Assembly (NCBI GenBank): GCA_965221955.1
Contig: CBDCTA010000004.1
Location: forward strand, 32,001 to 96,000
Reading direction: 5' to 3'
DNA: 64,000 nt
From: Gammaproteobacteria bacterium
GTDB taxonomy: Bacteria > Pseudomonadota > Gammaproteobacteria > UBA4575
Shown: piece by piece, positions 25,612-50,375 of the stretch
Layout: the number at the start of each line of letters is the position of its first letter
How positions within the stretch are numbered: position 1 is the stretch's first letter
Program-made: the position numbers and the translations under genes
The notes under the pieces: model-generated
The model's input: the letters and a program-made list of their open reading frames with translations, nothing else
The model's database searches: none
What the model was told of the DNA's origin: nothing

Positions 25612-26931
25612 ATGGAGGAGTACATGAAGCTCAAAACTTGCTTATTACCTAAACTGCAATATCCACTTTTCACAATCCTGTTTTTCTTAATTTCTCCTAC
25701 TGTATTTGCTGCCGGTTTTCAGATAAGCGAGCAAAGTGGTACGGGGCTAGGGCGTGCTTTTGCAGGTTTTGGAGTAATTGGTGATGATCTCTCAATGGCG
25801 TTTTACAATCCTGCTGGATTAACACAACAAGAAGGCATGCAACTTCAAGCAACAGGATTCTTAATCGATGGAAGTTCTAGATTTTCTAATAGTGGGTCTA
25901 CATTTACACAAATTCCTGGTGGAACTGCTCTAAGTACAGGCAGCAATGAAGATGGTGGAACATTTGCGATAGTTCCAAATTTGTACTTCATCATGGATTT
26001 AACAGACCGTTTGAAATATGGTTTTGCGATTACTGCGCCATTTGGATTAAGAACAGACTATGATCGTGATTGGGTAGGGAGGTATCAAGCAAAAGAATCT
26101 GAACTAAAAGTTGTAAATATAAATCCTTCGCTAGCATATAAAATCAATGATTCTTTTTCAGTTGGTTTCGGCGTTAGTGCTGAGTATGCAGAGGCTACAC
26201 TTAGCCAAGCGGTATTTACAGTGCTTGGAGATGGTTTTGCGGAAGTAGAAGGTGATGATTGGGCTTATGGTTGGAATACAGGCTTCATGTATCATCCAAG
26301 CCCAACGTTTCGTGCAGCAGTAGGCTTTCGCTCAAAAATTAGTCATGAACTAAAAGGCGACTTAGATATTTCTGGTTTGGTTGGACCGTTTGCGGTGGGG
26401 AACGGTAGGACTAGTGCTAGTGCAAGAGCAACCTTACCAGAAACTGTACATGCTGGTATCTATAAAGAATTTAGTAAGTGGGGGTTATCACTTGGTTTTC
26501 GGTGGACACGATGGAATCGTTTCAAAGAATTAAGAATTAAAAGTACTGGTAACGCTGATGCTGTGACTGAACAGCGCTGGGATAATGTAATTTCTGCAAA
26601 TATTGGAGTTGATTATTTCTATTCTGATAAATTGACTTTGCGAGCCGGTTACATGTTTGATGAATCTCCTACCAGTGACGAATTTAGAACGCCAAGAATT
26701 CCTGACGAAGACAGAAATTGGTTCGCGGTAGGTGCAAGTTATAAATACAATAATCATTTACAACTTGATGCAGGATTCACGCATATTATTGTTGATGACG
26801 CAGATATAGATAAAACAGAAATAGTAGCAGGTCCACCAACTTCACCGGTAGTTGCTATAGATTCACTGGTAGGTGAATATGATGATTCAGATGTAAATAT
26901 TCTTAGTTTGCAGGCTGTTTATAAGTTTTAA
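25612..26931 (+). CDS. fadL: FadL/OmpP1 outer-membrane transporter
   Basis: FA|AGFQISEQS..GLGRAFAG, NPAG, PFGL.TDY, NINPSLAYK, RTPRIPD.DR.W, terminal YKF. Confidence 0.9.
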   Translation: MEEYMKLKTCLLPKLQYPLFTILFFLISPTVFAAGFQISEQSGTGLGRAFAGFGVIGDDLSMAFYNPAGLTQQEGMQLQATGFLIDGSSRFSNSGSTFTQIPGGTALSTGSNEDGGTFAIVPNLYFIMDLTDRLKYGFAITAPFGLRTDYDRDWVGRYQAKESELKVVNINPSLAYKINDSFSVGFGVSAEYAEATLSQAVFTVLGDGFAEVEGDDWAYGWNTGFMYHPSPTFRAAVGFRSKISHELKGDLDISGLVGPFAVGNGRTSASARATLPETVHAGIYKEFSKWGLSLGFRWTRWNRFKELRIKSTGNADAVTEQRWDNVISANIGVDYFYSDKLTLRAGYMFDESPTSDEFRTPRIPDEDRNWFAVGASYKYNNHLQLDAGFTHIIVDDADIDKTEIVAGPPTSPVVAIDSLVGEYDDSDVNILSLQAVYKF

Positions 26932-28123: not shown

Positions 28124-28738
28124 ATGAAATCCTTTATCACTTCTTTTAAATACACGCTTGCAGCATTAGTAGCTGTACTTTTAATCAGTCTCTCAACGGT
28201 TGTTTTTGGAGAATCTAAAGATTCTGAAGAGCAAGCAATTACAGCAAATACTGAAGAATGCAAATTCAAAGCCTATACAGACCCACAAAAAATGGCGGCT
28301 GCAATGGCGAACCCAACTGAATTTATGCAGCTTGTAGCATTAATGAGCCAACCTCAGACCTACCAAAACATGATGGAATGTGGAATGGACACTGCACAAT
28401 GGAATGAAATTGTTGCCAACATGAGTAATCCAGCTACGTATATGGCTGCTTCTGGTCAATTCATGAACCCACAAATGTACATGAATTGGATGACCGCAAT
28501 GATGAACCCAGCTTTCTATACTGCTGCAATGACTCCTTACATGAACCCAGCACTTTATACACAGTGGATGACTGCGATGATGAACCCTGCGTTTTATCAA
28601 GCACCTATGCAAGCAATGGATCCTAAGTGGCAACAAGAAACCACTGCATGGATGATGGACCCTGCAAACTTCCAAAAGATGTTTGAAGGTATGACTGCTT
28701 ACGCACCCGTTGTAGCAGACGCTACACCGGCTAAGTAA
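28124..28738 (+). CDS. Exported Met-rich MNP-repeat protein (13-aa period)
   Basis: Signal peptide; MNPQMYMNWMTAM/MNPAFYTAAMTPY/MNPALYTQWMTAM/MNPAFYQAPMQAM repeats. Confidence 0.8.
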   Translation: MKSFITSFKYTLAALVAVLLISLSTVVFGESKDSEEQAITANTEECKFKAYTDPQKMAAAMANPTEFMQLVALMSQPQTYQNMMECGMDTAQWNEIVANMSNPATYMAASGQFMNPQMYMNWMTAMMNPAFYTAAMTPYMNPALYTQWMTAMMNPAFYQAPMQAMDPKWQQETTAWMMDPANFQKMFEGMTAYAPVVADATPAK

Positions 28739-31061: not shown

Positions 31062-31391
31062 TCAATGATGACAATACTTGTGACCATAATCATGGTGATA
31101 ACTATGATGTGGTCTATAATGTGAGTGATAGCCTTTATAGTGATGACGTTTGTGATGCTTATGGTGTCCGCGACCTCTATGATACTTTGGCTTGTGATAA
31201 TAATGATGATGTTCTACATAATGAGGGCGTTTATACCTATGTCCGTAATCGTTATAACCAATTGAAATATTCCAAGGATAGTCATAAATTCCAATATTGC
31301 CGTACACACCTCCACTAGCGTGCGACGGAGTAGCTAAGGCTAAGATGGACAAACCAATTACACTAAAAAGAATTCGTTTATACACTTTCAT
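31062..31391 (-). CDS. Exported His/Tyr-rich low-complexity protein
   Basis: GGAG RBS, signal peptide (SHA|S), C-terminal half dominated by H, Y, K, R and G. Confidence 0.7.
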   Translation of the reverse strand: MKVYKRILFSVIGLSILALATPSHASGGVYGNIGIYDYPWNISIGYNDYGHRYKRPHYVEHHHYYHKPKYHRGRGHHKHHKRHHYKGYHSHYRPHHSYHHDYGHKYCHH

Positions 31392-34223: not shown

Positions 34224-34673
34224 ATGAAGATATCCAGAAGAAATTTTTTAGAAAAAAGCTTTTATGTGGGACTGCTACCGGTAATTGGCATCCCTTCTAT
34301 TCTTTCAGCCGAGTGGCCGGCTGCAGCCTTTGATGAGACCGAATATGAGCCTGCATTGAAAGGCTTAATTGGTGATGAAGCACTCAATGAAGGTGGTGTA
34401 AATATAGATGCCCCTGAAATTGCAGAAAATGGTGCAACGGTTCCTGTAAAAGTTTCTACTGATTTAGCTAACGTTGAATGGATTAGCATTTTAGGCGATA
34501 AAAATCCTCGTCCTTGGATTTCACGCTTTTATTTCCATGGAAAATCCAAACCATTTGTATCCACTCGCATTAAGTTACGTGAGTCTTCAAACGTGGTCGC
34601 TATTGTTAAGGCAGATGGAAAACTTCACATTGGCAAATCAGCGGTTAAAGTAACTGCTGGTGGTTGTGTATAA
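34224..34673 (+). CDS. soxY: Thiosulfate oxidation carrier SoxY
   Basis: Tat motif SRRNFL, APEIAENGA.VP, KNP.P, STRIK, C-terminal VKVTAGGC. Confidence 0.93.
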   Translation: MKISRRNFLEKSFYVGLLPVIGIPSILSAEWPAAAFDETEYEPALKGLIGDEALNEGGVNIDAPEIAENGATVPVKVSTDLANVEWISILGDKNPRPWISRFYFHGKSKPFVSTRIKLRESSNVVAIVKADGKLHIGKSAVKVTAGGCV

Positions 34674-34691: not shown

Positions 34692-35009
34692 ATGGCTGAT
34701 AAAGAAATGAAAATTCGGGCGAAGCTAAAAGATGGCGTGACGACCGTTAAAGCGATTATGTACCATGAAATGGAGTCTGGTAGCCGAAAAGACAAAGAAA
34801 CAGGTGAATTGATTCCTGCACACTTTATTAAAGAAGTGAAAGCGGAGCTTAATGGTGAAGTGATTATTTCTGCTGAATGGGGTACGGGTGTTTCAAAGAA
34901 CCCTTATTGGTCTTTTGAGTTTGAAGGCGGTAACGCTGGAGACACCGTTAAGATTACTTGGGTGGATAATAAAGGTGAAACCGGTTCTGGAGAAGCAGTT
35001 ATTAAATAA
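34692..35009 (+). CDS. soxZ: SoxZ
   Basis: HEMESG.RKD..G.LIPAHFI, VSKNPY, WVDNKGE. Confidence 0.95.
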   Translation: MADKEMKIRAKLKDGVTTVKAIMYHEMESGSRKDKETGELIPAHFIKEVKAELNGEVIISAEWGTGVSKNPYWSFEFEGGNAGDTVKITWVDNKGETGSGEAVIK

Positions 35010-35082: not shown

Positions 35083-35472
35083 TTACTGCTGAATAGAGTC
35101 AAGATAAAGAATAAGTTCTAAGATCCTCCCGCGCACTATTTGCTCATCCACCTGACTACAACCTTCCCAAATCGTATCGGATAAAAACAAATCACCCCAT
35201 GTAGGCATGGCACGTGTACCATGTTCTTGCAACACTTCTCTGCCATCAATAATTGCATAGACTCTTGAAACCGGGAATTGCCCGTTATTTCTTTCTGATA
35301 TTAAAGTTAAATCTGGGGCACTTTTCCCTTTTGCATCTTCACCATGGCAGGACGCACATTTAGCATTAAAGGTTTGTTTTCCAGTAACTACGGGGTCATC
35401 CTGATCTGCGAAGAGATTTGTTGAGAGGGTAATAAAAAAGAAAAATATCAGACTTCGAAGAATTGAGGTCAT
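35083..35472 (-). CDS. Exported monoheme cytochrome c
   Basis: Signal peptide; CASCHG; APDLT.I..RN.G.FP; HG.RAMP.WG distal Met. Confidence 0.88.
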   Translation of the reverse strand: MTSILRSLIFFFFITLSTNLFADQDDPVVTGKQTFNAKCASCHGEDAKGKSAPDLTLISERNNGQFPVSRVYAIIDGREVLQEHGTRAMPTWGDLFLSDTIWEGCSQVDEQIVRGRILELILYLDSIQQ

Positions 35473-35514: not shown

Positions 35515-36660
35515 TTAAGCTTCTTGTTTTTTCCAAGGTAGTAGCAATTCTGCTAGACCTGTACCTAACGCGCCAAAAAATCCTTTCTCATCTAACATGT
35601 GGTACTGTATTTTCATTGTTAGTGCGCTACCAAAAATGATCGAAACTAATGTCAGGATAGAGCCTATTGCTAACGTAGACATACCAGTTACACCTTGTCC
35701 TATTGTGCAACCAAATGAGAGCACACCACCAAAGCCCATCATTACCGCTCCGATTAAATGATTCACCATTTCTGACTTATTGCTAAAGGTTTCGATTCTG
35801 AAGTTTCCAGAAAAAATTGCGTATAAGAATGAACCGGTAATCATGCCGAAGACTATTGCAATGCCGAAGTTAATTTCAGCACCTGTAAACGTCATTAAAT
35901 AACTAATGCTATTACCTGTTGGCCCAATGAACGCCATGCCTTGCGGTGTGATGGGGTCAAAGTCATCTTGCCCTACAAAACCTGAAACATACCATGCGGC
36001 GACTACGCATAATCCGATGGCCACACCTGCCAAAACGTTATCAAAGCTTTTACGAAATTCTTCATGCTTAAATGCATAGGCAATAAAACCAAAAGCAACA
36101 ATAAAACCACCTACCTTATTAAGCCAACCGATATCTTCTAAATTTAATAATGAACCGATATAGCTGAATAGTCCTTGATCATTTAGACCCTGATTAGTGA
36201 GGTCTACATTTACTGCATAGATCCAATTCAATCGAAAGTTTGCGAAGATGCCTCGCATGGTCATGTAAGCCGTGATGCCTAAAACAAGCACGACGACAAG
36301 TGCTTTAAGATTGCCACCCCCTACTCTTACAAGATTTCTTTGTCCACAACCTGCTGCTAATGTCATGCCGACACCAAAAATTAGCCCGCCTAATATATAA
36401 CTGAGTACATATAGGTTTGGAGAGCGATATACAGACTCATCGATATCGACCATGCCTTGTATATATAAGAATTGAACACCTAAGATGGCTATACCTATAG
36501 CAAGAAACCACGCGCCGAGTCGTCCCTTGGCGCCCATATTCACGACATCACTTACCGCACCCATTGAACAAAAGTGTGTTTTGTTACCGACGAACCCAAA
36601 TACGATTGCAATTACAAAACCTAATAGGGCTACTAAGTGAAGGTTAGATAATTCTTCCAT
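35515..36660 (-). CDS. YeeE/YedE sulfur-compound (thiosulfate) transporter
   Basis: Multi-TM with three conserved Cys motifs: HFCSMGA, LAAGCGQR, FGCTIGQG. Confidence 0.88.
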   Translation of the reverse strand: MEELSNLHLVALLGFVIAIVFGFVGNKTHFCSMGAVSDVVNMGAKGRLGAWFLAIGIAILGVQFLYIQGMVDIDESVYRSPNLYVLSYILGGLIFGVGMTLAAGCGQRNLVRVGGGNLKALVVVLVLGITAYMTMRGIFANFRLNWIYAVNVDLTNQGLNDQGLFSYIGSLLNLEDIGWLNKVGGFIVAFGFIAYAFKHEEFRKSFDNVLAGVAIGLCVVAAWYVSGFVGQDDFDPITPQGMAFIGPTGNSISYLMTFTGAEINFGIAIVFGMITGSFLYAIFSGNFRIETFSNKSEMVNHLIGAVMMGFGGVLSFGCTIGQGVTGMSTLAIGSILTLVSIIFGSALTMKIQYHMLDEKGFFGALGTGLAELLLPWKKQEA

Positions 36661-36778: not shown

Positions 36779-37276
36779 TTAGTTATTGGGCTTTTCTAGT
36801 TCTTGTTGTTGCTTGTACCATTCTTCATATTCATCGGGATGCATGGGTTGTTGTACTGGACGATGGAATTGATTAGGCGCCATCATATGGGGATTCATCC
36901 ATGCTGCTGGATTCATCATGTATGCAGGCATTGCCGCCATTTGCTGCATCATTTGTATCATCTGCATGTAGTTCGCCATATTCATCATCAATTGAAACCA
37001 AATAGCGGGGTTCATAGGGTTTTGCATTGCTGACGTTAGTGCAAATGGATCTTGGGCTGAAAAAGGCTCAATCATCGCAAATTGCTTTGATTCAACCACA
37101 TTTGGTGCATCAAAATCAGAATCAATCGAACGGTTGAATTGAGGGAATGTTGTGTGTGAAGCGGAGTTCAAAACTTCTGAAGTAGACGCTTTATTTTTAT
37201 GGTCAATAATTAAGGGAGCAACAATTAGCGCAATAATTGGGACGATAAAGAGTGCTTGTTGTACTACATTTTTCAT
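36779..37276 (-). CDS. Met-rich MNP-repeat protein (N-terminal membrane anchor/signal)
   Basis: MQNPMNPAIWFQLMMNM...MMNPAAWMNPHMM; C-terminal MHPDEYEEWYKQQ. Confidence 0.75.
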   Translation of the reverse strand: MKNVVQQALFIVPIIALIVAPLIIDHKNKASTSEVLNSASHTTFPQFNRSIDSDFDAPNVVESKQFAMIEPFSAQDPFALTSAMQNPMNPAIWFQLMMNMANYMQMIQMMQQMAAMPAYMMNPAAWMNPHMMAPNQFHRPVQQPMHPDEYEEWYKQQQELEKPNN

Positions 37277-37301
37277 TTAAATAAATTTTCTTAACTGAAT
37301 T

Positions 37302-37811
37302 TTATTTAGTAGAGGCTTGTCCTTGTTGCGTAAAATTTTGCATCATTTCAGTCCACTGGCTAAACCATTGTTCATATTGCTTTGGATCCATCATTTGTGC
37401 GCCAGGCATTTGATTCATAGGGTTTCCACCGTGTGAACCCATTCCAGGCATTCCCATACCCATGCCCATCATCGGATTCATCATTGGGCCCATCATGCCC
37501 ATCATGGGGTACATCATGTTCATACCCATCATAGGGTTCATCATGCCCATCATAGGACTCATCATCATGGTGGGGTTCATCATGCCCATCATGGGATTCA
37601 TCATCATGTTTGGATTCATCATGCCCGTCATTGGGGTCATCATGTGATTCATCATGTTCATATACATTGTTGGATTCATCATACCCATCATTGCATCCAT
37701 ATCTGGCATTGTAGATTGTTTTTTCTCTTCAGCATGCGTGAAAGAGACTCCTAGTACGAATAGGCAACTAGTAAATAAAACCAGTCGGAGTGATTTTTGT
37801 AGAGATTTCAT
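37302..37811 (-). CDS. Exported Met-rich MNP-repeat protein
   Basis: Signal peptide (THA|EE); MNPMMGM heptads (about 53 of 169 residues Met by hand count); C-terminal MMDPKQYEQWFSQWTEMM. Confidence 0.85.
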   Translation of the reverse strand: MKSLQKSLRLVLFTSCLFVLGVSFTHAEEKKQSTMPDMDAMMGMMNPTMYMNMMNHMMTPMTGMMNPNMMMNPMMGMMNPTMMMSPMMGMMNPMMGMNMMYPMMGMMGPMMNPMMGMGMGMPGMGSHGGNPMNQMPGAQMMDPKQYEQWFSQWTEMMQNFTQQGQASTK

Positions 37812-37852
37812 GTTTTCAGCCTCTTTATAGAATTAATCAAAGGTAACGTTAT

Positions 37853-38326
37853 TTATTGGTTCACTTGAGGGGTCATGTTTTTCATCATTTCAGTCCATTG
37901 ACTAAACCATTGCTCATATTGCTTTGGATCCATCATTTGGTTCATTGGGTTATAACTGCCATAGCTACCCATTCCACCCATCATCCCCATCGGATTCATC
38001 ATTGGAGTCATCATGCCCATCATGGGTCCCATCATGCTCATGTAGGCCATTGGATTCATCATTTGCATATAGTTTCCTGGATTCATCCAAACACCTGGAT
38101 GCATTAAAGACATATAGTTTCCTGGGTTCATCCACGTCATTGGATTCATCCACATCGCTGGATTGAACATGGGGTGATAAGTCCCCATCCCAGGATAGGT
38201 AGTTTGTCCCCAATTAGGGAAAGCAAACTGATTGTTAGTATTATTCTGGGCTTGTGTGTTAGAGATTCCAATAAAGCACAGGCAGCTTGTAATCAATACT
38301 ATTCGAATTAAATTTCGAAAAAACAT
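37853..38326 (-). CDS. Exported Met-rich MNP-repeat protein
   Basis: Start reassigned to the ATG at 38326 (GAGGA RBS, signal MFFRNLIR...TQA|Q); WMNP/MNPGNYM repeats; identical MMDPKQYEQWFSQWTEMM tail. Confidence 0.85.
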   Translation of the reverse strand: MFFRNLIRIVLITSCLCFIGISNTQAQNNTNNQFAFPNWGQTTYPGMGTYHPMFNPAMWMNPMTWMNPGNYMSLMHPGVWMNPGNYMQMMNPMAYMSMMGPMMGMMTPMMNPMGMMGGMGSYGSYNPMNQMMDPKQYEQWFSQWTEMMKNMTPQVNQ

Positions 38327-38363
38327 AGAGAGTTCCTCATAATTTTGGTCTGTAATTAAAAAT

Positions 38364-38963
38364 TTATTTTTTAGAATCCGTGTTACTCCACTGATTGAAC
38401 CATTGTTCATACTGTTTAGGATCCATCATTCCCATTGGGTTCATCATTGGAGCCATCATTGGGTTCATCATGCCCATCATAGGACTCATCATTGCACCGC
38501 TCATATCCATCATTGGGTTCACCATAGGGTTCATCATGCCCATTGCAGGTGCCATCATTGGGTTCATCATGCCCATCGTTGGGCCCATCATTCCCATCAT
38601 TGGATTCACCATGGGTGCCATCATTGGATACATCATGCCCATCATAGGATTCATCATACTCATCATTGGCTTCATAGCATCCATCATGGGACCGAAGTCT
38701 TTTTGATATCTCGCTACGTCTTCATCCGTATGGCATTCAGCGCATGATTCTATTGACATCAATTTATCGGGACTTGTCATCATCATATTCATCATGTTGT
38801 TCATAACCTTAGGGTCCATAGACTTTTGCATGGCTTGACTCATGTCACCCCAAGCAGGAGCTGCTTGCTTTGCTTCTTCTGCCTGTAGTGTTGCAGCGGT
38901 TGCTACAAACAAACAGATCGCTATGACAATTATTTGAGTAATTTTATTTTTCATTAACATCAC
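38364..38963 (-). CDS. Exported Met-rich MNP-repeat protein with a CXXCH heme-c motif
   Basis: GGAG RBS, signal (LQA|EE), SCAECHT, MNPMMGM repeats, MMDPKQYEQWFNQW tail. Confidence 0.85.
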   Translation of the reverse strand: MMLMKNKITQIIVIAICLFVATAATLQAEEAKQAAPAWGDMSQAMQKSMDPKVMNNMMNMMMTSPDKLMSIESCAECHTDEDVARYQKDFGPMMDAMKPMMSMMNPMMGMMYPMMAPMVNPMMGMMGPTMGMMNPMMAPAMGMMNPMVNPMMDMSGAMMSPMMGMMNPMMAPMMNPMGMMDPKQYEQWFNQWSNTDSKK

Positions 38964-38999
38964 TTGTTTATCTCCACTATTACTATTTAAATTTCAAAA

Positions 39000-40361
39000 T
39001 TAAAAATCGCCTGTTGCAGCACCTTCCATGATGTATTGAATATTTTCCCTTATTACTTTTGCATGCTCGCGTATATCTTTTGATAAATGACTGTTAGGGT
39101 TTTGTGCATAATCCAACCAACTGACATCCCAATCTAACGTCATTACCCATAACTTGCCTTCAGCATCTTCCATTAATGCAATTTTACAAGGCAAGAAAAC
39201 AATGAACTCTGGAACTTCATCCAGAATTTTGCGTGCCATTCTTGCATCACAAAAACGAAACATCTCAACTTTTGCTGAAGGTTGTTCAGTTTCAGCTTCG
39301 ATTTGCTTCCATAATGGGCTTGAACCCACAAATTTAAAATTTACTTCATTAGCACGTAGTTTCATGGCTTCTACGGCATCATCCCAGGAAACGCCCTCTT
39401 CTACTGGAATCTTTTCTGCCATCATGCTCACCATATTGCGCATGGATAACGGACTCATCGCCATCGCTGTTTGAAATGCATGCTGTTTTGCTTCGCGTGA
39501 AACGCTTGGAGAGACGGTATTTTTAGGCCAGTTTTCGTAGGTTTGTGTTGGAAGACCTGGAATCGTGATGACGGGGAGTTGCTCGGGTGTTTCCCCATTT
39601 TTATATGCTTCACTAGGTTGCCCAAACATTCCGAACATCATTTCTGGATCCATTGATTTCATCATGGCATTCATGTTTTGCGTTTGTGTCATGATGTTGA
39701 CCGGATGATTCATCATGGTCATAGGATTCATATAGATGTTTGGGTTCATCATGGTTCCCATCATGCTCATCATCATGGGTGTCATCATCACCATTGGGTT
39801 CATATACATCCCAGGATTCATCATGTTTGGATTCATCATTGGAGTCCCCATATTAGGATGCATAGTTTGCATCCAATTGGTGGCTACAGTTGTAGAATTT
39901 GATGGTGTAGCTTCGCTTGAATTACTTGCTTGGGAATTGTTTGTTTGGGTGGCTACTTCAGCATTTGAATCGATTTTTGCAATTTCTATTTCTGTATCGT
40001 CAGCTTCTTCGTCTAAATCTGATTCAGATACGCCAGTTTCATCATTAATTTCTATTGTTTGATTTGTTGTTACTTCTAAAGCGATTTCTTCCCCATCAAG
40101 TTTTTCAGTGGATGCTTCTTCTATTGCCTCATCTGAAGGTTCTAGAGCACTCTTTTCTTGTGGCTCGATTACTGCCTTATTAGTATCTAATTCTGCAAGT
40201 TGTACATTGGTAGTGGGCTGCTTTGTATCTTCTATAAGTTCAATATCCTCAACCTCAGGATGAATAAAGCTTGTCATTTTTGAATACACAGTCTGGTAAT
40301 TAGTAGCTAACAACCATCCAAGTAGACCAAATACAAATATAAATACGGTTTTCATTTTCAT
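39000..40361 (-). CDS. Membrane-anchored protein: acidic linker, Met-rich MNP block and C-terminal DUF302 domain
   Basis: N-terminal TM; D/E-rich spacer; MMNPNMMNPGMYMNP block; GVSWDDAVEAMKLRA...FRFCDA...FLPCKIA.MED..GK.W DUF302 signature. Confidence 0.8.
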   Translation of the reverse strand: MKMKTVFIFVFGLLGWLLATNYQTVYSKMTSFIHPEVEDIELIEDTKQPTTNVQLAELDTNKAVIEPQEKSALEPSDEAIEEASTEKLDGEEIALEVTTNQTIEINDETGVSESDLDEEADDTEIEIAKIDSNAEVATQTNNSQASNSSEATPSNSTTVATNWMQTMHPNMGTPMMNPNMMNPGMYMNPMVMMTPMMMSMMGTMMNPNIYMNPMTMMNHPVNIMTQTQNMNAMMKSMDPEMMFGMFGQPSEAYKNGETPEQLPVITIPGLPTQTYENWPKNTVSPSVSREAKQHAFQTAMAMSPLSMRNMVSMMAEKIPVEEGVSWDDAVEAMKLRANEVNFKFVGSSPLWKQIEAETEQPSAKVEMFRFCDARMARKILDEVPEFIVFLPCKIALMEDAEGKLWVMTLDWDVSWLDYAQNPNSHLSKDIREHAKVIRENIQYIMEGAATGDF

Positions 40362-40744: not shown

Positions 40745-41266
40745 ATGAAATTGATTTCTGTTCTTTTTTTGCTAGCAATTGGATTTGCCATAGCTTTTGC
40801 TTCTTCAAAAACGCTCGAGTCTACTAATCAAACTGAGTTTTGTACTTCATGTCACTCTATGCAGTGGGTCAAACAAGAATGGATGGAGAGTATTCACTAT
40901 TCAAATATTTCAGGGGTAAGAGCTAATTGTTCGGACTGTCATGTGCCACATGATACTGGACCTAAATTGGTTGCAAAGTTACGAGCAGCAAAGGACGTTT
41001 GGCATGAAATTCTTGGCACTATTGATACTGAAGAAAAATTTGAACACCATCGTTGGCAAATGGCTAACGCTGTATGGGATAGAATGAAGGCAACAGACTC
41101 CCGAGAATGCAAATCATGTCATACGGTTGCCGCGATGGATCTTAAAGAACAAGATCGTTCAGCGCGCAAAAAGCATAAAAAGATTGCTAAAGGAGATAGC
41201 GAGAAAACTTGTATCGATTGCCACAAAGGTGTTGCTCATGAAGCACCTAGTGAACCAGAGGAATAA
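40745..41266 (+). CDS. NapC/NirT-family tetraheme cytochrome c
   Basis: Four CXXCH motifs (CTSCH, CSDCH, CKSCH, CIDCH); HYSN.SGVRA, KGVAH; N-terminal TM. Confidence 0.93.
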   Translation: MKLISVLFLLAIGFAIAFASSKTLESTNQTEFCTSCHSMQWVKQEWMESIHYSNISGVRANCSDCHVPHDTGPKLVAKLRAAKDVWHEILGTIDTEEKFEHHRWQMANAVWDRMKATDSRECKSCHTVAAMDLKEQDRSARKKHKKIAKGDSEKTCIDCHKGVAHEAPSEPEE

Positions 41267-41427
41267 GCAAAACCTGTAAATGATGATATAAATCAGCAAA
41301 TTTCTATATAAAAGCCCTAAATACTGGCAATTCAATGTGCTAAAGTTTCGAAAAGTTATGAACCTTTGTTTATGGCTTACTACTAATTAATAACAACCAT
41401 ATGGATCCAGGAATTAGGAGGAGTTCT

Positions 41428-42087
41428 ATGTTTAATCATCGCATCCTCGCGACTCTAATTACGCTTGTATTTGGAGTATGTTTTGTTTCACCCGCAGCAG
41501 CAGAAGGTGCCAGTGCTGAAATGCTGTCTAACACATGCCTTGGTTGCCATGGTCCTGGCGGAATTAGTAAAGGCCCAGCAACACCTACCATTTCAGGAAT
41601 GTCAGAGCTTTATATTATCGCTGCGATGTTAGCCTATAAATATGATAACGATGAAGACAAAATCGATGAGATTATTGAATCAGATCCTGATTTAGAGGAT
41701 GTTGAATATTTTGCAAGAACCTCAACCGTGATGAATCGTATCGCGAAAGGTTATTCCGAAGAAGAAATTAAAATTATTTCTAAACACTTTGCTGAGCTAC
41801 CTTTTGAGAGTGCTGCGCAAAGTGCAAATGCTGATCAAGCCAAGTCTGGTGCAAAGTTACACGAAGCACATTGTGAAAAATGTCATGAAGATGGAGGCAG
41901 TTCCGCAGAAGATGACGCGGGTGTGCTAGCTGGACAATGGGCTCCTTACCTTGAATACACCATGGCAGATTTTGCAAGTGGTGATCGGAAAATGCCTAAG
42001 AAAATGAAGAAACAGATGGAAGAAGCACATGCAGCAAATGAAGAAGCTATAAGAGATCTGATTCAGTTTTACATAAACCAAAAGTAA
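41428..42087 (+). CDS. fccA: Flavocytochrome c sulfide dehydrogenase, diheme cytochrome subunit
   Basis: AGGAGG RBS before the ATG at 41428; CLGCHG..G.S.GPATPTISG, ST.MNRIAKGY, CEKCH, LAGQW.PYL, R.MPKKM. Confidence 0.88.
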   Translation: MFNHRILATLITLVFGVCFVSPAAAEGASAEMLSNTCLGCHGPGGISKGPATPTISGMSELYIIAAMLAYKYDNDEDKIDEIIESDPDLEDVEYFARTSTVMNRIAKGYSEEEIKIISKHFAELPFESAAQSANADQAKSGAKLHEAHCEKCHEDGGSSAEDDAGVLAGQWAPYLEYTMADFASGDRKMPKKMKKQMEEAHAANEEAIRDLIQFYINQK

Positions 42088-42114: not shown

Positions 42115-43392
42115 ATGACAAATATAAATCGAAGAAGTTTTTTAAAAGCCACTGGCGGTGCATTAGCTACTGGTGGTTTAGGTGTTCCATTTCTAGCCCA
42201 TGCAGCAAAGAAACGTGTTGTCGTTGTAGGTGGTGGAGTTGGCGGTTTAATTGCTGCTAAATATATTGCAAAAGGTGACTCATCAATAGAAGTTACGATT
42301 GTTGAGCCTAAAGCACATCACCACACGTGTTTTATGAGTAATGAAGTTATTGGTGGAGATCGTGATATTTCTACCATTAAATTTGGCTATGACAATCTTG
42401 CGAATCACGGCATCAAGCTGGTTCAAGACAAAGTCACTATGGTTGATGCGGAAGCACATAAAGTGAAGACTGCAGGTGGTACAACTTTAGAGTATGACCG
42501 TTGCGTAGTTTCTCCAGGAATTGCACTAAAGTTTGGTGCAATTGAAGGATATAGCGAAGAAGCTGCAGAAATAATGCCGCACTCTTGGATTGCAGGACAG
42601 CAAACTGCCCTACTTCGTAGCCAGCTTGAATCAATGGAAGATGGTGGCCTAGTCGTTATCGCGCCTCCTCAAAACCCTTTCCGTTGCCCTCCTGGTCCAT
42701 ATGAGCGTGCGGCACAAATTGCACATCATCTAAAACACAACAAACCTAAATCTAAACTTTTAATTTTAGATGCTAAAGATAAGTTTTCTAAGCAAGGCTT
42801 GTTCATGCAAGGTTATAAAGATGTGTATGGTGAAATGATTGAATGGGTTGCAGGTGCTGATACGGGTGGTGGTGTTAAGTCAGTAGATACTAAAGCCATG
42901 ACCGTGAGTACAGACTTTGATGACCATAAAGTGGCAGTCGCTAATATCATACCTCCACAACAGGCAGCACAAGTCGCACATGATTCAGATTTAGTGGACG
43001 ATTCTGGTTGGTGCCCGGTTGATCTAGGCACATTTGAATCAAAGAAACATAAAGATGTACATGTAATTGGTGATGCAAGCATCGCGAAAGGTATGCCGAA
43101 GTCTGGCTATGCAGCGAGTACTCAAGCAAAAGTATGCGCAGCAGCGGTTGTTAGCATGTTGCAAGGTAAAGATGCACCGGTAACATCATACGCTAATGCA
43201 TGTTATAGCTTAATTGCACCGGATTATGGTATTTCAGTCGTAGCGGTTTATGCCCTTGCAGAAGATCGTTCTGAAATCAAAAAACTTGGTGGTGGTTTAA
43301 CTCCCATGGATGCAACTGCTGAAGCGCGCGCACGTGAAGTGGAATATGCATATAGTTGGTTTAATAATATGACAGCAGAAATGTTTGGCTAA
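42115..43392 (+). CDS. fccB: Flavocytochrome c sulfide dehydrogenase, flavoprotein subunit
   Basis: Tat [54 protein letters not shown]. Confidence 0.93.
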
Positions 43393-43732: not shown

Positions 43733-44299
43733 TTAAAGATTTATCTTAACTGTAAATGCACCCCGTATATCACCTGCTTGAAACCCGGTTGCTTGGTCTT
43801 CAGGATAAAGGTCATTAATTTTTTCAGCAATGACAGGAGCTAACTTTTTTCCATGGCACAACAAACAAGGTTCTTGCATGGGTATCGCTTTCATATAGCG
43901 AAAGATTTTTTCCCCATCTTCCTTTACAACTTCACTTATTTCTAGAGTTTTAATATCTACATTTAAATTTTTCTGAGATTCAAACCAGTGTAACTGTTTT
44001 GTTTCCCATGCATCCGCTTGATTAGTAGGATTGCGAAGTTTTAAAGATGTGCGCCCTACTTTGAGATTATTTTTAACAGAGATTTTTTTGCTGATTTCTA
44101 CAGCTTCAAGATTACAAATTGTAATTGCTGCTTCAGGTCCCTCTGATTGTATTGTGCTGACGAGTTTGTTTTTTAACTGTTTGCCTAGTTGTTTACTCGC
44201 GCTTTGACTTAAAGCCAATTCTTGTTCGGTATTAGGAGTACACGCAATATTTGTTAACGCAAATAAAGCGGCTATTAAAATAAAAACGAACTTGTTCAA
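43733..44299 (-). CDS. DUF3365 (Tll0287-like) heme-binding lipoprotein
   Basis: Lipobox (NIAC), AI.IC, RTSLKLRNP.N.AD.WE, RYMKAI....CLLCHG, YP.DQATGF..GDIRGAF. Confidence 0.85.
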   Translation of the reverse strand: MNKFVFILIAALFALTNIACTPNTEQELALSQSASKQLGKQLKNKLVSTIQSEGPEAAITICNLEAVEISKKISVKNNLKVGRTSLKLRNPTNQADAWETKQLHWFESQKNLNVDIKTLEISEVVKEDGEKIFRYMKAIPMQEPCLLCHGKKLAPVIAEKINDLYPEDQATGFQAGDIRGAFTVKINL

Positions 44300-44309
44300 A
44301 CTGAAGTGT

Positions 44310-44915
44310 TTAAATAAACAAGCAGATATCAGATTTTTGTGCAGCAGGTAAAAAGGATGCTGCCCCTACCCAATCACTCACATCATCAATAAATTGATCT
44401 TTCTCGTAACCAAATAAGTCTACTGTCATTTGGCATGCAACCAATTTCACTTCAGCTTCTACTGCAAGCTCACGTAGTTCTTCGACACTTGCTACACCTT
44501 TGTTTTTGAGTGTTTTAGACATCATAGTCGTTGCAAACTTTTCAAAACCAGGAATGTTACTGCTGAGTGCATTAGGAATATTCCATTCGATACTCTTAAA
44601 CCATTCTGGTCCAAATGGCATTTTCATAGGCATCGCGGGGTTACCTAAAGGTGAGATTTCTAAATCTAAATCTTTTTTTAATAAATTTAAGCCATAAAAT
44701 GTAAAGAAACAGGATACTTCCCAACCTAATGCTGCAGCGGTAGATGCAAGAATAAAAGGTGGATAAGCCATATCCATAGTGCCTTTCGTGGCAATTAAAG
44801 ATAGTTGAGGGATACGAGATTCTTCACGTTCTTGTAATTTTTGTTCTAGTCTTTCATCAAACCATTGATCTAACATTTCAGGAGTTAGATTTTGAGTATC
44901 AAGTGAATTCGCCAT
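44310..44915 (-). CDS. dsrE: DsrE2-like sulfurtransferase (DsrE/DsrF family)
   Basis: IATKGT.DMAYPPFILASTAAALG.EV..FFTFYGL.LL, LVACQMTVDLF, GAASFL. Confidence 0.88.
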   Translation of the reverse strand: MANSLDTQNLTPEMLDQWFDERLEQKLQEREESRIPQLSLIATKGTMDMAYPPFILASTAAALGWEVSCFFTFYGLNLLKKDLDLEISPLGNPAMPMKMPFGPEWFKSIEWNIPNALSSNIPGFEKFATTMMSKTLKNKGVASVEELRELAVEAEVKLVACQMTVDLFGYEKDQFIDDVSDWVGAASFLPAAQKSDICLFI

Positions 44916-45607: not shown

Positions 45608-46501
45608 ATGGATGCTGCAACACTGACAAATCTTTGGCCAAAGATTGAAATGAAGCTGCCTCGTTGGGTAAGCATTGCTTTGGTTGTATTGATTTTGATT
45701 ACTCTGGCTAAATTAGTTTGGGGATTTTTCGATAGTGGCTCTAATCAAGTGATTGCACCACCTGTTACTACACCTACAAATGTTAAACCGCAACCACGCG
45801 CTAACCATGATCGCAAGATTGCTCAATTGCACTTAATGGGTAAGCCAGCCCCTGTCGCTTCATCTTCGAAAAAAGTTGAAGATGCTCCCGATACAACATT
45901 GAACCTAAAGCTTTTAGGGGTGTTGGCGGGCGATAAAGATTACGGCTACGCCATTATTTCTAGTGGTGCGAATAAAATTAAGCACTATGGACTTGGGGAT
46001 GATATCCCTGGAGGTGCCGTATTACATGCGGTGTATTCGGATCGAGTTATCCTTGAACGTGATATCAGGATGGAAACGTTACGTTTACCTAGAGCCAATG
46101 CAAAAGGCTTCAATCAAAAGAAGTTCTCAAATACTAAGCCAAAAACTGCAACCCAATCGAAGGCTGCTGGAAATCTTAACAATTTTGAAACGCTTGGGCA
46201 GTTTCGCCAAGAAATTATGAAAAATCCTGTTCGTTTAACAGAGTTCATCAATGCGGCACCCGAAAACAACGAAGATGGGCAGTTTTTGGGTTATAAACTT
46301 ACGCCAAGCAAGAATACAGATATGTTCTATCAGCTCGGTTTACAACCTGGAGATGTTGTGACAAACATTAATGGAGTGACATTGGATGCGCCAAATAAAG
46401 GCCCTGAAGCCATGCAGTCTTTAGCCACGGCTTCTGAAGTCACCATGATTGTGATGCGCGAAGGTACTGAAATCACCTTATTTCAGGATTTGAGTCAATA
46501 A
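45608..46501 (+). CDS. gspC: T2SS protein C (with PDZ domain)
   Basis: APDTTLNLKLLGV, DRVIL...ETL.L, GLQPGDVV..ING; first gene of the gsp cluster. Confidence 0.88.
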   Translation: MDAATLTNLWPKIEMKLPRWVSIALVVLILITLAKLVWGFFDSGSNQVIAPPVTTPTNVKPQPRANHDRKIAQLHLMGKPAPVASSSKKVEDAPDTTLNLKLLGVLAGDKDYGYAIISSGANKIKHYGLGDDIPGGAVLHAVYSDRVILERDIRMETLRLPRANAKGFNQKKFSNTKPKTATQSKAAGNLNNFETLGQFRQEIMKNPVRLTEFINAAPENNEDGQFLGYKLTPSKNTDMFYQLGLQPGDVVTNINGVTLDAPNKGPEAMQSLATASEVTMIVMREGTEITLFQDLSQ

Positions 46502-46692
46502 TTGCTTGTGAGGGAGCAGGAAGCAAGTGAAGAAGCTTATCCATTAGTCCAGGAATAGCTAACACAGGGATAAATTTGACCAAGTAAAAATAGGATTTAG
46601 TGTATAAAAGTCAGGCAACTTCTATTCGATGTAGAAATATCCTGATAAGCTGAATGAACATATAATTTTTATTGAAAAAACTACATAACTAA

Positions 46693-48828
46693 ATGAAATA
46701 TAAGTCTAACTTTAGCCGAATTTTTAAAGCGTTGGGTGTTTATGTGGTGTTTGTTGCATTCATATGTCAGCTCGCTCTAGCCGAAACAGGTGTAACACTT
46801 AATCTGAAGGATGCGGATATTCGTTCGTTCATTGAAACGGTAGCTGACGCCACTGGCCGAAATTTTGTAGTAGATCCCCGTGTAAAAGCAAAAGTAACCG
46901 TGGTGTCCGCACGGCCAATGAACCGTGAAGAAGTGTATCAAGTATTCCTCTCTGTATTACAGGTGCATGGTTATGCTGCAGTGCAAGTTGGAGAAATTAT
47001 TAAAATTCTCCCGGATGTAAATGCGAAACAAGGGCCTGTAGTTACTGGAAGCGGTAGCGCAGATGCAATCGGTGATGAGCTGGTAACGCGTGTGGTACCA
47101 ATTAAAAATGTTCCTGCGGCGCAAATGGTACCTATACTAAGACCTTTAGTACCGCAACAAGGTCATTTAGCTGCATATCCGAATAGCAATGTTTTAGTAG
47201 TTTCGGATCGTGCTGCAAACATTCAAAGATTAATTTCAATTATTAATCGTATTGACCGTCCAGATAGTCAAGAAATTGAAATTGTACCTCTTCAACATGC
47301 ATCTGCTGCAGAAGTCGTTCGGATTATTAACTCCATGAACCGTCAAGATGCTCAAGGTCAGGTCCCAGGTGGCACAACCCTCGCAGCGGATGAACGATCA
47401 AACAGTGTCTTACTTTCTGGTGATAATGCAGCACGTCTTAGAATCCGAGGCATCATTGCCCATCTCGACACGCCTTTACAAGGTGGTGGAAATTCGCAAG
47501 TTGTGTTTTTGAAATATGCTAAAGCTGCAGAGTTGGCCCCTATTCTACTTGGTGTTTCACAATTTGAAGCGCAGGAAGGTCAGCAAGGTGGAAATGCAGC
47601 CGCCGCTGTAAATGGCTCTAATGAAGTAGATATACAAGCAGATGAAACTAATAACGCATTAATTATCACGGCAGCTCCGGCTAAGTTTGATAGTTTAAGA
47701 AGAATTATTAGTCAACTTGATGTACGTCGTGCACAAGTGTTAGTAGAAGCAGTGATAGCAGAAGTTTCAACCAACCTTGCTAAAGATTTAGGTGTTGAAT
47801 TTGCTTATGTACCCACCGATCGATCCTCTGGTACAACGCCAGCTTTTGGAACTTTACTACCGAATAGCGGAATTGATTTAACAGGTGTTCTTGGTGGTGA
47901 TGCAGCTAATGCAATAACAGCGGTTACAAGTGGTGCATTTGTTGGTGCAGCTAAACTAAGTGGCAAAGATCGATTTGCTGCTTTAATACGTGCGCTTGAA
48001 GGAGATTCTGCTACAAATATTTTATCTACCCCTCAGTTAATGACGCTAGATAATGAAGAAGCAGAGATCGTTGTAGCGCAAAATGTTCCTTTCATTACAG
48101 GTCAGTTCACTAATACAGGTTCTGGAACCGATTCTGCAGTAAACCCATTTCAAACAATTGAACGTGAAGACGTAGGTATAACACTACGTATAACACCTCA
48201 AATCAATGAAGGTGATAGCGTTAAATTGGATATAGAAACAGAGTCATCTTCTATTTCAACTTCTGCAGTAGCCAGTGATCTCATCACAAATAAACGCTCA
48301 ATTAGCACTAGTGTTTTAGCTAAGGATCAGCAAACGATTGTACTAGGTGGTTTGATTGAAGATTCGTTTAGAGACAATGTGCAAAAAGTACCGTTATTGG
48401 GCGATATTCCTTTGTTAGGTCATTTGTTTAAAGCAACATCTACAACAAATGACAAACAAAACTTAATGGTATTTATACATCCGGTAATTGTTCGCGATGC
48501 TGCGACTGGTAGCTATGCTACAAACTCTAAGTATAGTTTCTTACGTGCTAAACAAATTGAATCTGAAATAAATGACCGTGGCCTAATTAAAAATGGCGCG
48601 AGTTTATTGCCTGACTTGGATGAATTGGTAACCCAAATTCCTGGTGGTGGAACAGCATCTTCTACATCAGCTGTTTCAATAGATCAATTACTACAACAAT
48701 CACCAGGTGTTGAAACTACTGCTGCTGAAGAATTATCCGATATAGCCGTAGAAGAAATTCAAGCTGAAGATTTGCCTGCTGAAAATATTTCTATTGAAAC
48801 GGATTCAGACGTAATTATTCTGGAATAA
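46693..48828 (+). CDS. gspD: T2SS secretin
   Basis: LNLKDADI..FI, DPRVK.KV, LDVRRAQV.VEA.I.EV, ILSTP.LMTLDNEEA, KVPLLGDIP.LG.LF. Confidence 0.95.
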   Translation: MKYKSNFSRIFKALGVYVVFVAFICQLALAETGVTLNLKDADIRSFIETVADATGRNFVVDPRVKAKVTVVSARPMNREEVYQVFLSVLQVHGYAAVQVGEIIKILPDVNAKQGPVVTGSGSADAIGDELVTRVVPIKNVPAAQMVPILRPLVPQQGHLAAYPNSNVLVVSDRAANIQRLISIINRIDRPDSQEIEIVPLQHASAAEVVRIINSMNRQDAQGQVPGGTTLAADERSNSVLLSGDNAARLRIRGIIAHLDTPLQGGGNSQVVFLKYAKAAELAPILLGVSQFEAQEGQQGGNAAAAVNGSNEVDIQADETNNALIITAAPAKFDSLRRIISQLDVRRAQVLVEAVIAEVSTNLAKDLGVEFAYVPTDRSSGTTPAFGTLLPNSGIDLTGVLGGDAANAITAVTSGAFVGAAKLSGKDRFAALIRALEGDSATNILSTPQLMTLDNEEAEIVVAQNVPFITGQFTNTGSGTDSAVNPFQTIEREDVGITLRITPQINEGDSVKLDIETESSSISTSAVASDLITNKRSISTSVLAKDQQTIVLGGLIEDSFRDNVQKVPLLGDIPLLGHLFKATSTTNDKQNLMVFIHPVIVRDAATGSYATNSKYSFLRAKQIESEINDRGLIKNGASLLPDLDELVTQIPGGGTASSTSAVSIDQLLQQSPGVETTAAEELSDIAVEEIQAEDLPAENISIETDSDVIILE

Positions 48829-48834
48829 TTCCAA

Positions 48835-50361
48835 ATGGAAACTGAAAAGGCACAACCTTCATTAGCACCGCGAGAAATTCGTAGACCGCCGTTTAGCTTT
48901 GCTAAACGCCATGGCATTTTAATTGGTAATGAAATTAATGGCCGTGTGATGATTTTTCAACGCCCCGATGTAAAACCACCTTCGTTAGCTGAAGCGCGGC
49001 GCTTTGTTGGCAAACCGTTAAATATTCGTACCCTCTCGGATGATGAATTCGATGAGCTATTAACACAACTCTATGATGATAGTGCTACGGGTACATTGGC
49101 TTTGATGGAAGGTTTTGAAGATGATCTTGATTTAGCCAGTCTTGCAGAAGCCTTGCCTGAGCCACAAGATTTGATGGATGCAGATGATGATGCACCGATT
49201 ATTCGTTTAATAAATGCATTGCTTACTCAAGCGGTTAAAGAAGGTGCATCAGATATACATATTGAAACGTTTGAATCTAGATTATCCGTACGTATGCGCG
49301 TAGATGGTGTATTGCGTGAAGTGCTACAACCGCCCCGCAATTTAGGTGCGCTTGTTGTTTCACGTATTAAAGTGATGGCTGCGTTAGATATTGCAGAAAA
49401 ACGTTTACCGCAAGATGGACGTATATCTTTGCGAATAGCAGGCCGACCTGTAGATGTACGTGTTTCCACCCTTCCCTCTGGACATGGCGAACGTGTCGTA
49501 TTGCGTTTATTAGATAAGCAAGCGGGACGGCTAGATTTAGAACACTTAGGCTTGCACCCAGATCTTCATGATAAAATTAAACAAGCCATTGAAAAGCCTC
49601 ATGGCATTGTTTTAGTTACGGGTCCAACTGGTTCAGGTAAAACCACCACCTTATACGCTGCATTAAGCGAAATTAACGATAAGAAACGCAATATTCTTAC
49701 CGTTGAAGATCCAATTGAATATTTCATTGATGGCATTGGACAAACACAAGTCAATGGCAAAGTGGACATGACCTTTGCACGTGGTTTACGCGCCATTCTT
49801 CGTCAAGACCCTGATGTGGTGATGGTTGGTGAGATTCGTGACTTAGAAACTGCATCCATTGCAGTACAAGCTAGTTTGACAGGCCATATGGTGTTCTCTA
49901 CTTTGCATACCAACACTGCAGTAGGTGCTATTACACGTATGCGTGATATGGGTGTCGAACCTTTCTTGCTCGCATCTAGTTTGGTCGCAGTATTAGCACA
50001 ACGTTTAGTACGCGTTTTGTGCGAGGAATGCAAAGTTTCACATATCGCAAATGACGTTGAGCTAAAACAATTACGGTCGGATGGTAAAGATTTTAACCAG
50101 TCACCTAATATTTACTCACCTGGTTCTTGTAGCGCGTGTAACGGTACAGGTTATGCAGGTAGAACCGGTATTTACGAACTTGTCACGATTGATGAAAACA
50201 TGCGGCGCATGATTCATGATATTGGTGCTGAACAAGAACTAGAAAAATACGCACACCAACATACGGCGAGCATCCGTCAAGATGGAATTCGCTTAGTGCT
50301 TGAGGGAGTAACCACACTTGAAGAAGTCATGCGCGTGACTAAAGAAGATGTTGAATACTAA
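48835..50361 (+). CDS. gspE: T2SS ATPase
   Basis: [45 protein letters not shown], tetracysteine motif. Confidence 0.96.
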   Translation: METEKAQPSLAPREIRRPPFSFAKRHGILIGNEINGRVMIFQRPDVKPPSLAEARRFVGKPLNIRTLSDDEFDELLTQLYDDSATGTLALMEGFEDDLDLASLAEALPEPQDLMDADDDAPIIRLINALLTQAVKEGASDIHIETFESRLSVRMRVDGVLREVLQPPRNLGALVVSRIKVMAALDIAEKRLPQDGRISLRIAGRPVDVRVSTLPSGHGERVVLRLLDKQAGRLDLEHLGLHPDLHDKIKQAIEKPHGIVLVTGPTGSGKTTTLYAALSEINDKKRNILTVEDPIEYFIDGIGQTQVNGKVDMTFARGLRAILRQDPDVVMVGEIRDLETASIAVQASLTGHMVFSTLHTNTAVGAITRMRDMGVEPFLLASSLVAVLAQRLVRVLCEECKVSHIANDVELKQLRSDGKDFNQSPNIYSPGSCSACNGTGYAGRTGIYELVTIDENMRRMIHDIGAEQELEKYAHQHTASIRQDGIRLVLEGVTTLEEVMRVTKEDVEY

Positions 50362-50375
50362 ACCTCGAGCAATTT

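Follow-up and report, generated by a model that had tools for sequence, protein, structure and literature searches.

A sulfur-oxidation locus of a gammaproteobacterium of the UBA4575 lineage (assembly GCA_965221955.1, contig CBDCTA010000004.1) contains an operon of five co-oriented open reading frames (ORFs), here named A to E, which encode a real and conserved set of exported, methionine (Met)-rich repeat proteins. The operon occupies positions 36779-40361, on the minus strand, of the 64,000-nucleotide (nt) stretch of DNA that was analyzed as a whole (the window). Comparison across genomes shows that the core of the set is a near-obligate, conserved pair of an exported Met-rich repeat protein and an exported DUF302 protein; A to E are a lineage-specific expansion of this two-part module, in which a Met-rich segment is fused to DUF302 in protein A. 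A search of the literature (full text, supplements excluded) found no description of Met-rich partners of DUF302, YeeE or Sox, and we regard the proteins as new as a set and undescribed, attached to a known pathway of sulfur oxidation. The function we favor, at slightly under an even chance, is that of a periplasmic carrier or hand-over system for zero-valent sulfur (S0) that would feed a YeeE-type importer.

An earlier note on this DNA had described five tandem genes, each with an export signal or anchor and an extreme Met content. The limits of the ORFs match 36779..40361 exactly, each of the five proteins has a hydrophobic signal or anchor at its N-terminus, and Met makes up 10-31% of their residues, with the highest share (31.4%) in D (Table 1). 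The mean over the 53 ORFs of at least 150 amino acids (aa) in the window is 4.5%, and a content of at least 9% is reached by 34 of the 3803 ORFs of at least 80 aa in the 2.69 Mb genome; in the genome-wide ranking D is first, B second and C fourth. The repeats form imperfect tandem arrays that stay in frame, with units of 9-66 nt and periods divisible by three. Gaps of 25-41 nt separate the genes, and ribosome-binding sites precede B, C and D. One start had to be revised: at 38326 the sequence GAGGA lies 8 nt before an ATG that is followed by a signal peptide, so C most likely begins there and thus does not overlap B. A scan for promoters and terminators was uninformative (11 promoter-like sites vs 22.9 expected).

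On the plus strand, His-rich ORFs of 74-114 aa lie over the repeats and could mislead gene callers. They mirror the ATG-rich coding sequence, since CAT encodes His. The Met frame is the real one: signal peptides, ribosome-binding sites and a non-repeat tail that is conserved all belong to it, and it remains intact in relatives with GC contents of 37-69%. Met has a single codon, and the persistence of Met richness across this range of GC content argues for selection for Met itself.

Protein A starts with an anchor or signal, continues with an acidic spacer (residues about 30-160) and a Met-rich segment (residues 164-245, 38% Met), and ends, after a conserved linker, in a DUF302 domain (PF03625, residues 359-410) that scores 37.9 bits against a gathering cut-off of 23. 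Two cysteines of this domain, Cys371 and Cys392 (C122 and C143 of the alignment), fall in xxC(D/N) and LPC motifs and are invariant in all 38 aligned relatives. According to its predicted AlphaFold model (predicted local distance difference test, pLDDT, 84.8), the C-terminus of A adopts the TT1751-like alpha/beta fold. A Foldseek search with the model retrieved the DUF302 structures 1j3m, 1q9u and 7tj1 at E values of about 1e-7 (1j3m_A, 7e-8; 1q9u_A, 1.2e-7, with a template modeling score of 0.82 on the target). At the sequence level, a profile built on the DUF302 alignment produced nothing in the PDB beyond a match expected by chance. The domain of A thus shares its fold with the known members of the family (PF03625; 1J3M, 1Q9U) and passes the Pfam cut-off, but differs from them in being exported, in carrying a conserved N-terminal extension of about 60 residues, in its fusion to a Met-rich segment and in its pairing with Met-rich proteins.

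This pairing was followed in three locus scans, each with one genome per species and a different seed. With the DUF302 part of A as seed, 80 loci were kept of 100 confirmed, and a partner was counted where a same-strand ORF of at least 100 aa and at least 12% Met lay within 4 kilobases (kb). Such a partner was present in 22 of the 23 syntenic gammaproteobacterial loci, in 13/14 loci of a second gamma clade, in all six Rhodocyclaceae loci and in the one Arenicellales locus, which makes 42/44 when the beta loci are excluded. The beta loci yielded a partner in 6/36 cases, and several more of them encode a related MNP-repeat protein that has a signal peptide and less Met. The second scan, seeded with the haem domain of B (see below), found DUF302 directly upstream in 34/34 loci. 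The third, seeded with the Rhodocyclaceae Met-rich protein, which naturally lacks a DUF302 part, found DUF302 directly downstream in 52/53, the one exception being a locus cut off by a contig edge; YeeE lay upstream, within 3 kb, in 36 of these 53 loci. The hosts in the third scan include Sulfuricella, Methyloversatilis, Rubrivivax, Granulosicoccaceae, several Hyphomicrobiales and Marimonas lutisalis GH1-19, a cultured Rhodobacteraceae strain that carries the minimal pair (locus L164).

In total, the module is found in more than 120 loci of Gamma-, Beta- and Alphaproteobacteria. Among the 63 Met-rich ORFs paired with DUF302, Met averages 23%, His 1.2% (maximum 4.4%) and charged residues 9.5% (maximum 17%). 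The earlier note had placed these proteins in a candidate storage or globule-coat system; because the DUF302 partner is near-obligate, the emphasis moves from a coat to a carrier or hand-over module. As a side observation, a Hyphomicrobiales metagenome-assembled genome (MAG) encodes in a row an ArsR-type regulator, two DUF302 proteins (one of 500 aa and a canonical one of 128 aa) and a Met-rich protein.

The remaining proteins of the operon are built from a small number of recurring parts, and neither B to E nor M204, a sixth Met-rich protein treated below, could be assigned to a Pfam or NCBIfam family. Protein B has a Sec-type signal, a small helical domain with a CxxCH motif, MNPMMGM-type repeats and a DPKQYEQWF tail. 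The motif, CAECH at residues 74-78 (C74, C77, H78), is invariant in 34/34 aligned sequences, and the surrounding domain of about 65 residues is invariant or nearly so across the same sequences. Its predicted model is all helical (pLDDT 85.3); Foldseek found no match for it among solved structures, and the best VIA Z-score was 3.4. Matches to cytochrome families stayed below threshold (DUF1924, 20.2 bits vs 22.5; SorU, E 0.059), and among 1.84 billion proteins only 64 representative clusters match B at E<=1e-3. From its CxxCH motif, B is plausibly a putative haem-binding redox subunit.

Proteins C and D each have a signal peptide, followed in C by WMNPGNYM and MMGMM repeats and a MDPKQYEQWFSQWTEMMKN tail, and in D, the most Met-rich ORF of the genome, by MMGMMNP heptads and the same tail motif. 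D has only 149 relatives among 5.8 billion clusters, and in the 120 among the matches listed neither a Pfam domain nor an informative name occurs. Proteins B, C and D have a non-repetitive tail, MDPKQYEQWF(S/N)QW, in common, and the tail motif recurs in 35 of the 63 Met-rich partner ORFs. Protein E combines an N-terminal membrane anchor and a Met/Gln-rich segment with a related tail, HPDEYEEWY, and has relatives in 11 syntenic loci. Since the E-like proteins of some relatives carry a B-like CxxCH domain of their own (three examples in Table 1), the anchor, haem domain, repeats and tail appear to be shuffled modules.

The sixth exported Met-rich protein of the window, M204, is encoded on the plus strand and has MNPxxY repeats and two cysteines. 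In 15 syntenic loci a relative with 44-71% identity is encoded close to soxYZ, and M204 also shows about 30% identity to the Met-rich protein that accompanies DUF302 in Rhodocyclaceae. A paralogue is present on another contig of the genome. The DUF302 domain of A with its two invariant cysteines, the CxxCH motif of B and this sixth Met-rich paralogue are all features absent from the earlier note.

The surroundings of the module point to sulfur. Pfam searches bore out the neighbors that had been named before (YeeE, cytochrome c, NapC, FccAB, SoxYZ, a DUF3365-type protein and DsrE). Across the 23 syntenic loci, FccAB is found in 23/23, DsrE2 in 21/23, YeeE in 20/23 and SoxY in 19/23, many of the misses being loci truncated by the end of a contig. 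In the second gamma clade, DUF302 and B are divergent from a block of soxX-Y-Z-A, tusA, dsrE2, a FadL-like porin and yeeE, and in the Arenicellales MAG the order is soxXYZAB, a BigR-like ArsR regulator, a Met-rich protein, a B-like protein, DUF302 and YeeE. Overall, the recurring neighbors of the pair are SoxYZ, TusA, DsrE2, rhodanese and TsdA-like genes.

The association was also examined at the level of organisms, in 300 genomes sampled so as to spread over the families of the class, counting DUF302 proteins related to A at E<=1e-10. A related DUF302 occurs in 79 of these genomes (in its full long form in only four). SoxY is present in 72/79 carriers vs 71/221 non-carriers, DsrA in 58/79 vs 31/221, and one or the other in 77/79. 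SoxY was also found in all five genomes in which the pair has a housekeeping local context. In the neighborhoods and genomes scanned, the relatives track sulfur oxidizers rather than copper loci, as the earlier note had anticipated for a sulfur system. Its prediction of an anti-correlation with soxCD did not hold: among SoxY-positive genomes, DUF302 is present in 17/35 with SoxC and in 55/108 without it at the pre-set threshold, and a difference appears only at a post-hoc threshold of E<=1e-20 (7/35 vs 49/108, p 0.009).

The genome under study, which is 96.6% complete, encodes dsrA and has no match to soxB or soxC. Periplasmic sulfane sulfur must therefore enter the cytoplasm, and SoxYZ may work here without the usual Sox enzymes. 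The import step could be served by the YeeE-type channel encoded after E. Its Cys31, Cys105 and Cys318 are invariant in 30/30 aligned sequences; transport by TsuA depends on three conserved cysteines. The channel falls far below the cut-offs of the TsuA NCBIfam equivalogs (114.6 bits vs 400; 70.2 vs 645) and is thus a YeeE-family paralogue, not TsuA proper. From their sequences, A and E are plausible candidates for membrane tethers and YeeE for the importer; together with B as redox subunit, this agrees with the roles suggested before.

According to the carrier reading, sulfane sulfur would be supplied in the periplasm by FccAB and SoxYZ. Flexible, uncharged, thioether-rich segments might hold hydrophobic S0 or polysulfide non-covalently, and the two invariant DUF302 cysteines could form a covalent bond with the sulfur they receive or act as a gate for its release at the membrane. 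The putative haem of B may supply a redox step, and the shared DPxxYxxWF tail could be a docking helix that brings the soluble members to a common partner. The YeeE channel would then supply cytoplasmic DsrE2/TusA and rDsr. The more specific proposal, that the flexible Met-rich proteins are a non-covalent thioether carrier or matrix for S0 and polysulfide, possibly a condensate or a coat of deposits, which passes sulfur through the DUF302 cysteines and the haem domain to YeeE, we consider unlikely as it stands.

A number of observations weigh against a role in sulfur transfer. All of the support for the carrier reading comes from association, as read from sequences, and we know of no chemistry by which Met thioethers bind S0. 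The two cysteines are found at the aligned positions of the cytoplasmic DUF302 paralogue of this genome, so the pair is a trait of the family and not specific to sulfur. With YeeE within 3 kb in only 36/53 loci, the Met-rich/DUF302 pair has no strict need for the channel. In Alphaproteobacteria and some others, the pair is found amid housekeeping genes (nrdR-ribD, bamD and a SurA-like peptidyl-prolyl isomerase). SoxY is missing from seven of the 79 genomes with a related DUF302, in two of which DsrA is missing as well. In addition, odds ratios from the sampled genomes overstate independence because these genomes are interrelated, and one genome in the SoxY tally is unpublished (G296, SoxY-positive and DUF302-negative).

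Several of these points favor the most serious alternative, namely that the function centers on DUF302 and is not sulfur-specific. The Met-rich protein would then be a client, substrate or scaffold in another envelope process, and sulfur oxidizers would merely be the lineages that keep it. The tightest pairing is indeed that of Met-rich proteins with DUF302 (34/34 and 52/53) and not with YeeE, and both the housekeeping context in Alphaproteobacteria and the family-wide cysteine pair fit such a role. On the other hand, SoxY or DsrA is present in nearly all of the carriers sampled from the class, the genomes with a non-sulfur local context have SoxY without exception, and SoxYZ, TusA, DsrE2, rhodanese and TsdA-like genes recur as neighbors. 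Overall, we rate this alternative as unlikely, though it deserves real weight.

Binding of Cu(I) or Ag(I) is suggested by the repeats themselves, in which MxM and MxxM motifs are dense and could buffer or chaperone soft metals in the periplasm. Met-only Cu(I) sites are established chemistry, and Met-rich segments serve such a role in CueO, CopA, PcoE/SilE, CusF and Ctr1. A literature search on Met-rich periplasmic proteins, moreover, turned up copper papers only (PMC9182242, PMC8689200). The periplasmic copper or silver proteins PcoE/SilE and CusF and the Met-rich inserts of CueO and CopA resemble A to E in the dense MxM/MxxM spacings of exported proteins, but they contain His, are charged and are encoded in metal-resistance loci, whereas A to E are poor in His and in charge and lie in a sulfur locus. 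No copper or metal-efflux family was found among 26 proteins of the window, 66 proteins from seven loci and 32 from eight loci. Genes for a two-component system, MerR, a cytochrome c and a P1B ATPase (HMA and YHS domains) form a separate metal locus on another contig of this genome. Two Met-rich periplasmic proteins (164 and 177 aa) are encoded there as well; His makes up 7-9% of their residues, charged residues make up about 30%, and Pro and Asn are scarce, unlike the MNP-type proteins with their average of 1.2% His. The carriers also track SoxY and DsrA. Overall, we find a copper or silver function improbable.

In a globule coat or condensate, the Met-rich proteins would serve sulfur deposits as their envelope or as a phase-separated matrix, with A and E as tethers; this reading also has attractive features. 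The 63 partner ORFs are exported, of low complexity and on average low in charge, several paralogues share one operon, and the tail motif could mediate self-assembly. Sgp proteins are rich in Gly and Tyr, whereas the composition of A to E is Met/Pro/Asn/Gly. In the passages of PMC10386293 that bear on this point, SgpA-D of Allochromatium vinosum are, like A to E, Sec-exported, small, hydrophobic or repetitive proteins with several paralogues in a sulfide oxidizer with rDsr, and Allochromatium and other globule formers share with this organism a gene set of FccAB and rDsr without a SoxCD match. SgpA-D are proven envelope components of visible globules (PMC10386293, same passages), whereas A to E would be candidate ones, and Sgp proteins have not been reported with a DUF302 partner. 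Moreover, globule formation by these uncultured bacteria would be an assumption, the obligate partner is a small globular DUF302 protein rather than a structural one, and the pair occurs with a single Met-rich gene in Alphaproteobacteria, including the cultured Rhodobacteraceae strain. Copy number and Met content are also far from constant, with Met as low as 3% in some beta relatives. None of the comparisons made here supported a coat, a storage function or a phase-separated compartment, and a globule coat or condensate seems to us about as improbable as copper binding.

As a sacrificial oxidant sink, the proteins would expose Met to scavenge periplasmic oxidants and be re-reduced by MsrPQ, after the manner of MrpX of Azospira suillum. 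The passages of PMC4436054 on that system describe MrpX as exported and natively unfolded, with a Met content of 20%; hypochlorite oxidizes it and YedY regenerates it. B, C and D, with 28%, 21% and 31% Met, likewise contain at least that share. The genome under study also encodes an adjacent pair of MsrP-like and MsrQ-like proteins (PF00174 and PF01794). However, MrpX has 44% charged residues and belongs to a yedYZ-mrpX operon under SigF (PMC4436054, same passages), whereas charged residues make up at most 17% here and the partners are DUF302, YeeE and Sox. The only msrPQ pair lies on another contig (C2), with none in the scanned neighborhoods, and an oxidant sink would leave the DUF302 partner, the haem motif and the YeeE and Sox neighbors unexplained. 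We therefore consider this explanation very unlikely. Finally, the chance that the Met frames are spurious products of ATG-rich repeats, or that the His-rich ORFs of 74-114 aa on the plus strand are the true genes, is negligible, as the Met frames include, beside the signals and tail already described, the invariant CxxCH domain and are intact next to DUF302 in more than 120 loci of three classes.

Among characterized systems, the closest to the carrier reading is SoxT1A/SoxT1B of Hyphomicrobium denitrificans. In the sections of PMC11582611 that deal with it, a YeeE-family channel with conserved cysteines is encoded beside SoxYZ and cytoplasmic sulfurtransferases (DsrE, TusA), as in the locus described here, and has the same proposed role of bringing sulfane sulfur into the cytoplasm. 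The helper proteins differ, being thioredoxin-like (DsbA-like and SoxS) in Hyphomicrobium (PMC11582611, same sections), whereas here they would be Met-rich repeat proteins, a CxxCH protein and DUF302. The words DUF302 and methionine do not occur in PMC11582611. DUF302 genes within sox clusters were noted in 2016-2017 (PMC5037610, PMC5248467) and DUF302 adjoining YeeE was noted in Sulfitobacter (PMC11034169); the passages of these three papers on DUF302 and sox make no mention of a Met-rich partner.

Table 1. Coordinates of the Met-rich operon, its neighbors and other features discussed in the text. Positions refer to the window unless another contig (C) or locus (L) is given.
Feature	Position	Strand	Length	Details
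Protein A	39000-40361	-	453 aa	10.2% Met
Protein B	38364-38963	-	199 aa	28.1% Met
Protein C, as listed	37853-38410	-	185 aa	18.4% Met
Protein C, corrected start	37853-38326	-	157 aa	21% Met
Protein D	37302-37811	-	169 aa	31.4% Met
Protein E	36779-37276	-	165 aa	11.5% Met
M204, sixth exported Met-rich protein	28124-28738	+	204 aa	13% Met, MNPxxY repeats, 2 Cys
YeeE/SoxT-type channel	35515-36660	-	381 aa	PF04143, 222.9 bits, profile positions 2-309 of 310
Exported monohaem cytochrome c	35083-35472	-	129 aa	Last co-directional gene; PF13442, PF00034, NCBIfam
soxY	34224-34673	+		PF13501, 109 bits
soxZ	34692-35009	+		PF08770, 127 bits
napC/nirT-type tetrahaem cytochrome	40745-41266	+		Pfam NapC/NirT, 217 bits, and NCBIfam; divergent from A to E
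fccA	41401-42087	+		Pfam (FCSD domains) and NCBIfam
fccB	42115-43392	+		Pfam (FCSD domains) and NCBIfam
Tll0287-like protein	43733-44299	-		PF11845, 94 bits
DsrE2-type sulfurtransferase	44310-44915	-		PF13686, 164 bits
FadL/TodX-type outer-membrane channel	25612-26931	+		About 8 kb from soxYZ
gspC, D, E, F (type II secretion)	45608-51593	+		Directly after the sulfur locus
Tyr/His/Lys/Gly-rich exported protein	31062-31391	-	109 aa	No Pfam family
Tyr/His/Lys/Gly-rich exported protein	C28:93923-94267	-	114 aa	No Pfam family
His-rich ORF over repeats	38403-38747	+		Mirror of Met frame
His-rich ORF over repeats	37856-38107	+		Mirror of Met frame
His-rich ORF over repeats	39678-39902	+		Mirror of Met frame
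M204 paralogue	C11:3899-4519			
Separate metal locus	C14:59600-67700 (L112:5641-13679)			Away from A to E
E-like protein with CxxCH domain	L013:9639-10289			
E-like protein with CxxCH domain	L008:13143-13778			
E-like protein with CxxCH domain	L011:15376-15981			
Weaker FadL/TodX relative	L023:2859-4373			Second gamma clade, between yeeE and dsrE2
ArsR-type regulator, two DUF302 genes, Met-rich gene	L159:1046-2965			Hyphomicrobiales MAG

The neighboring genes of the window are listed in Table 1. The divergent arrangement napC-fccA-fccB is conserved in 23/23 syntenic loci, and this position of a napC/nirT gene directly upstream of fccAB suggests that electrons pass from flavocytochrome c through the NapC/NirT-type cytochrome to the quinone pool. 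The family of the Tll0287-like protein, PF11845, is presumably the former DUF3365. The FadL/TodX-type channel of the window, of which the second gamma clade encodes a weaker relative, could possibly be an outer-membrane route for hydrophobic sulfur. Type II secretion genes follow the sulfur locus directly. Two small exported proteins, one of them encoded between M204 and soxYZ, contain much Tyr, His, Lys and Gly, a composition resembling that of structural or metal-binding proteins; they were the only hits when exported ORFs rich in Gly and Tyr were sought in a rough scan as substitutes for Sgp, a scan that is no test of Sgp absence.

The question to which these proteins may be relevant is how periplasmic sulfane sulfur reaches cytoplasmic rDsr or sHdr. 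Import of sulfur by the YeeE-like SoxT has been shown only recently, and the periplasmic donor was left open (PMC11582611, in its sections on SoxT). The locus described here and the more than 120 related loci provide a testable candidate set, made up of Met-rich repeats, a new small CxxCH domain and an exported DUF302, and genetics should be possible since a cultured strain, Marimonas lutisalis GH1-19, carries the minimal pair. The thioether carrier or matrix, the less likely version, would in addition fill the periplasmic gap in the import pathway of rDsr- and sHdr-type oxidizers and give DUF302 its first function. If the carrier reading is true, the module would assign a role to DUF302, a widespread domain, and represent an unusual use of methionine. 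It would also provide new marker genes for sulfur import in uncultured sulfur oxidizers of marine, sediment and symbiotic habitats.

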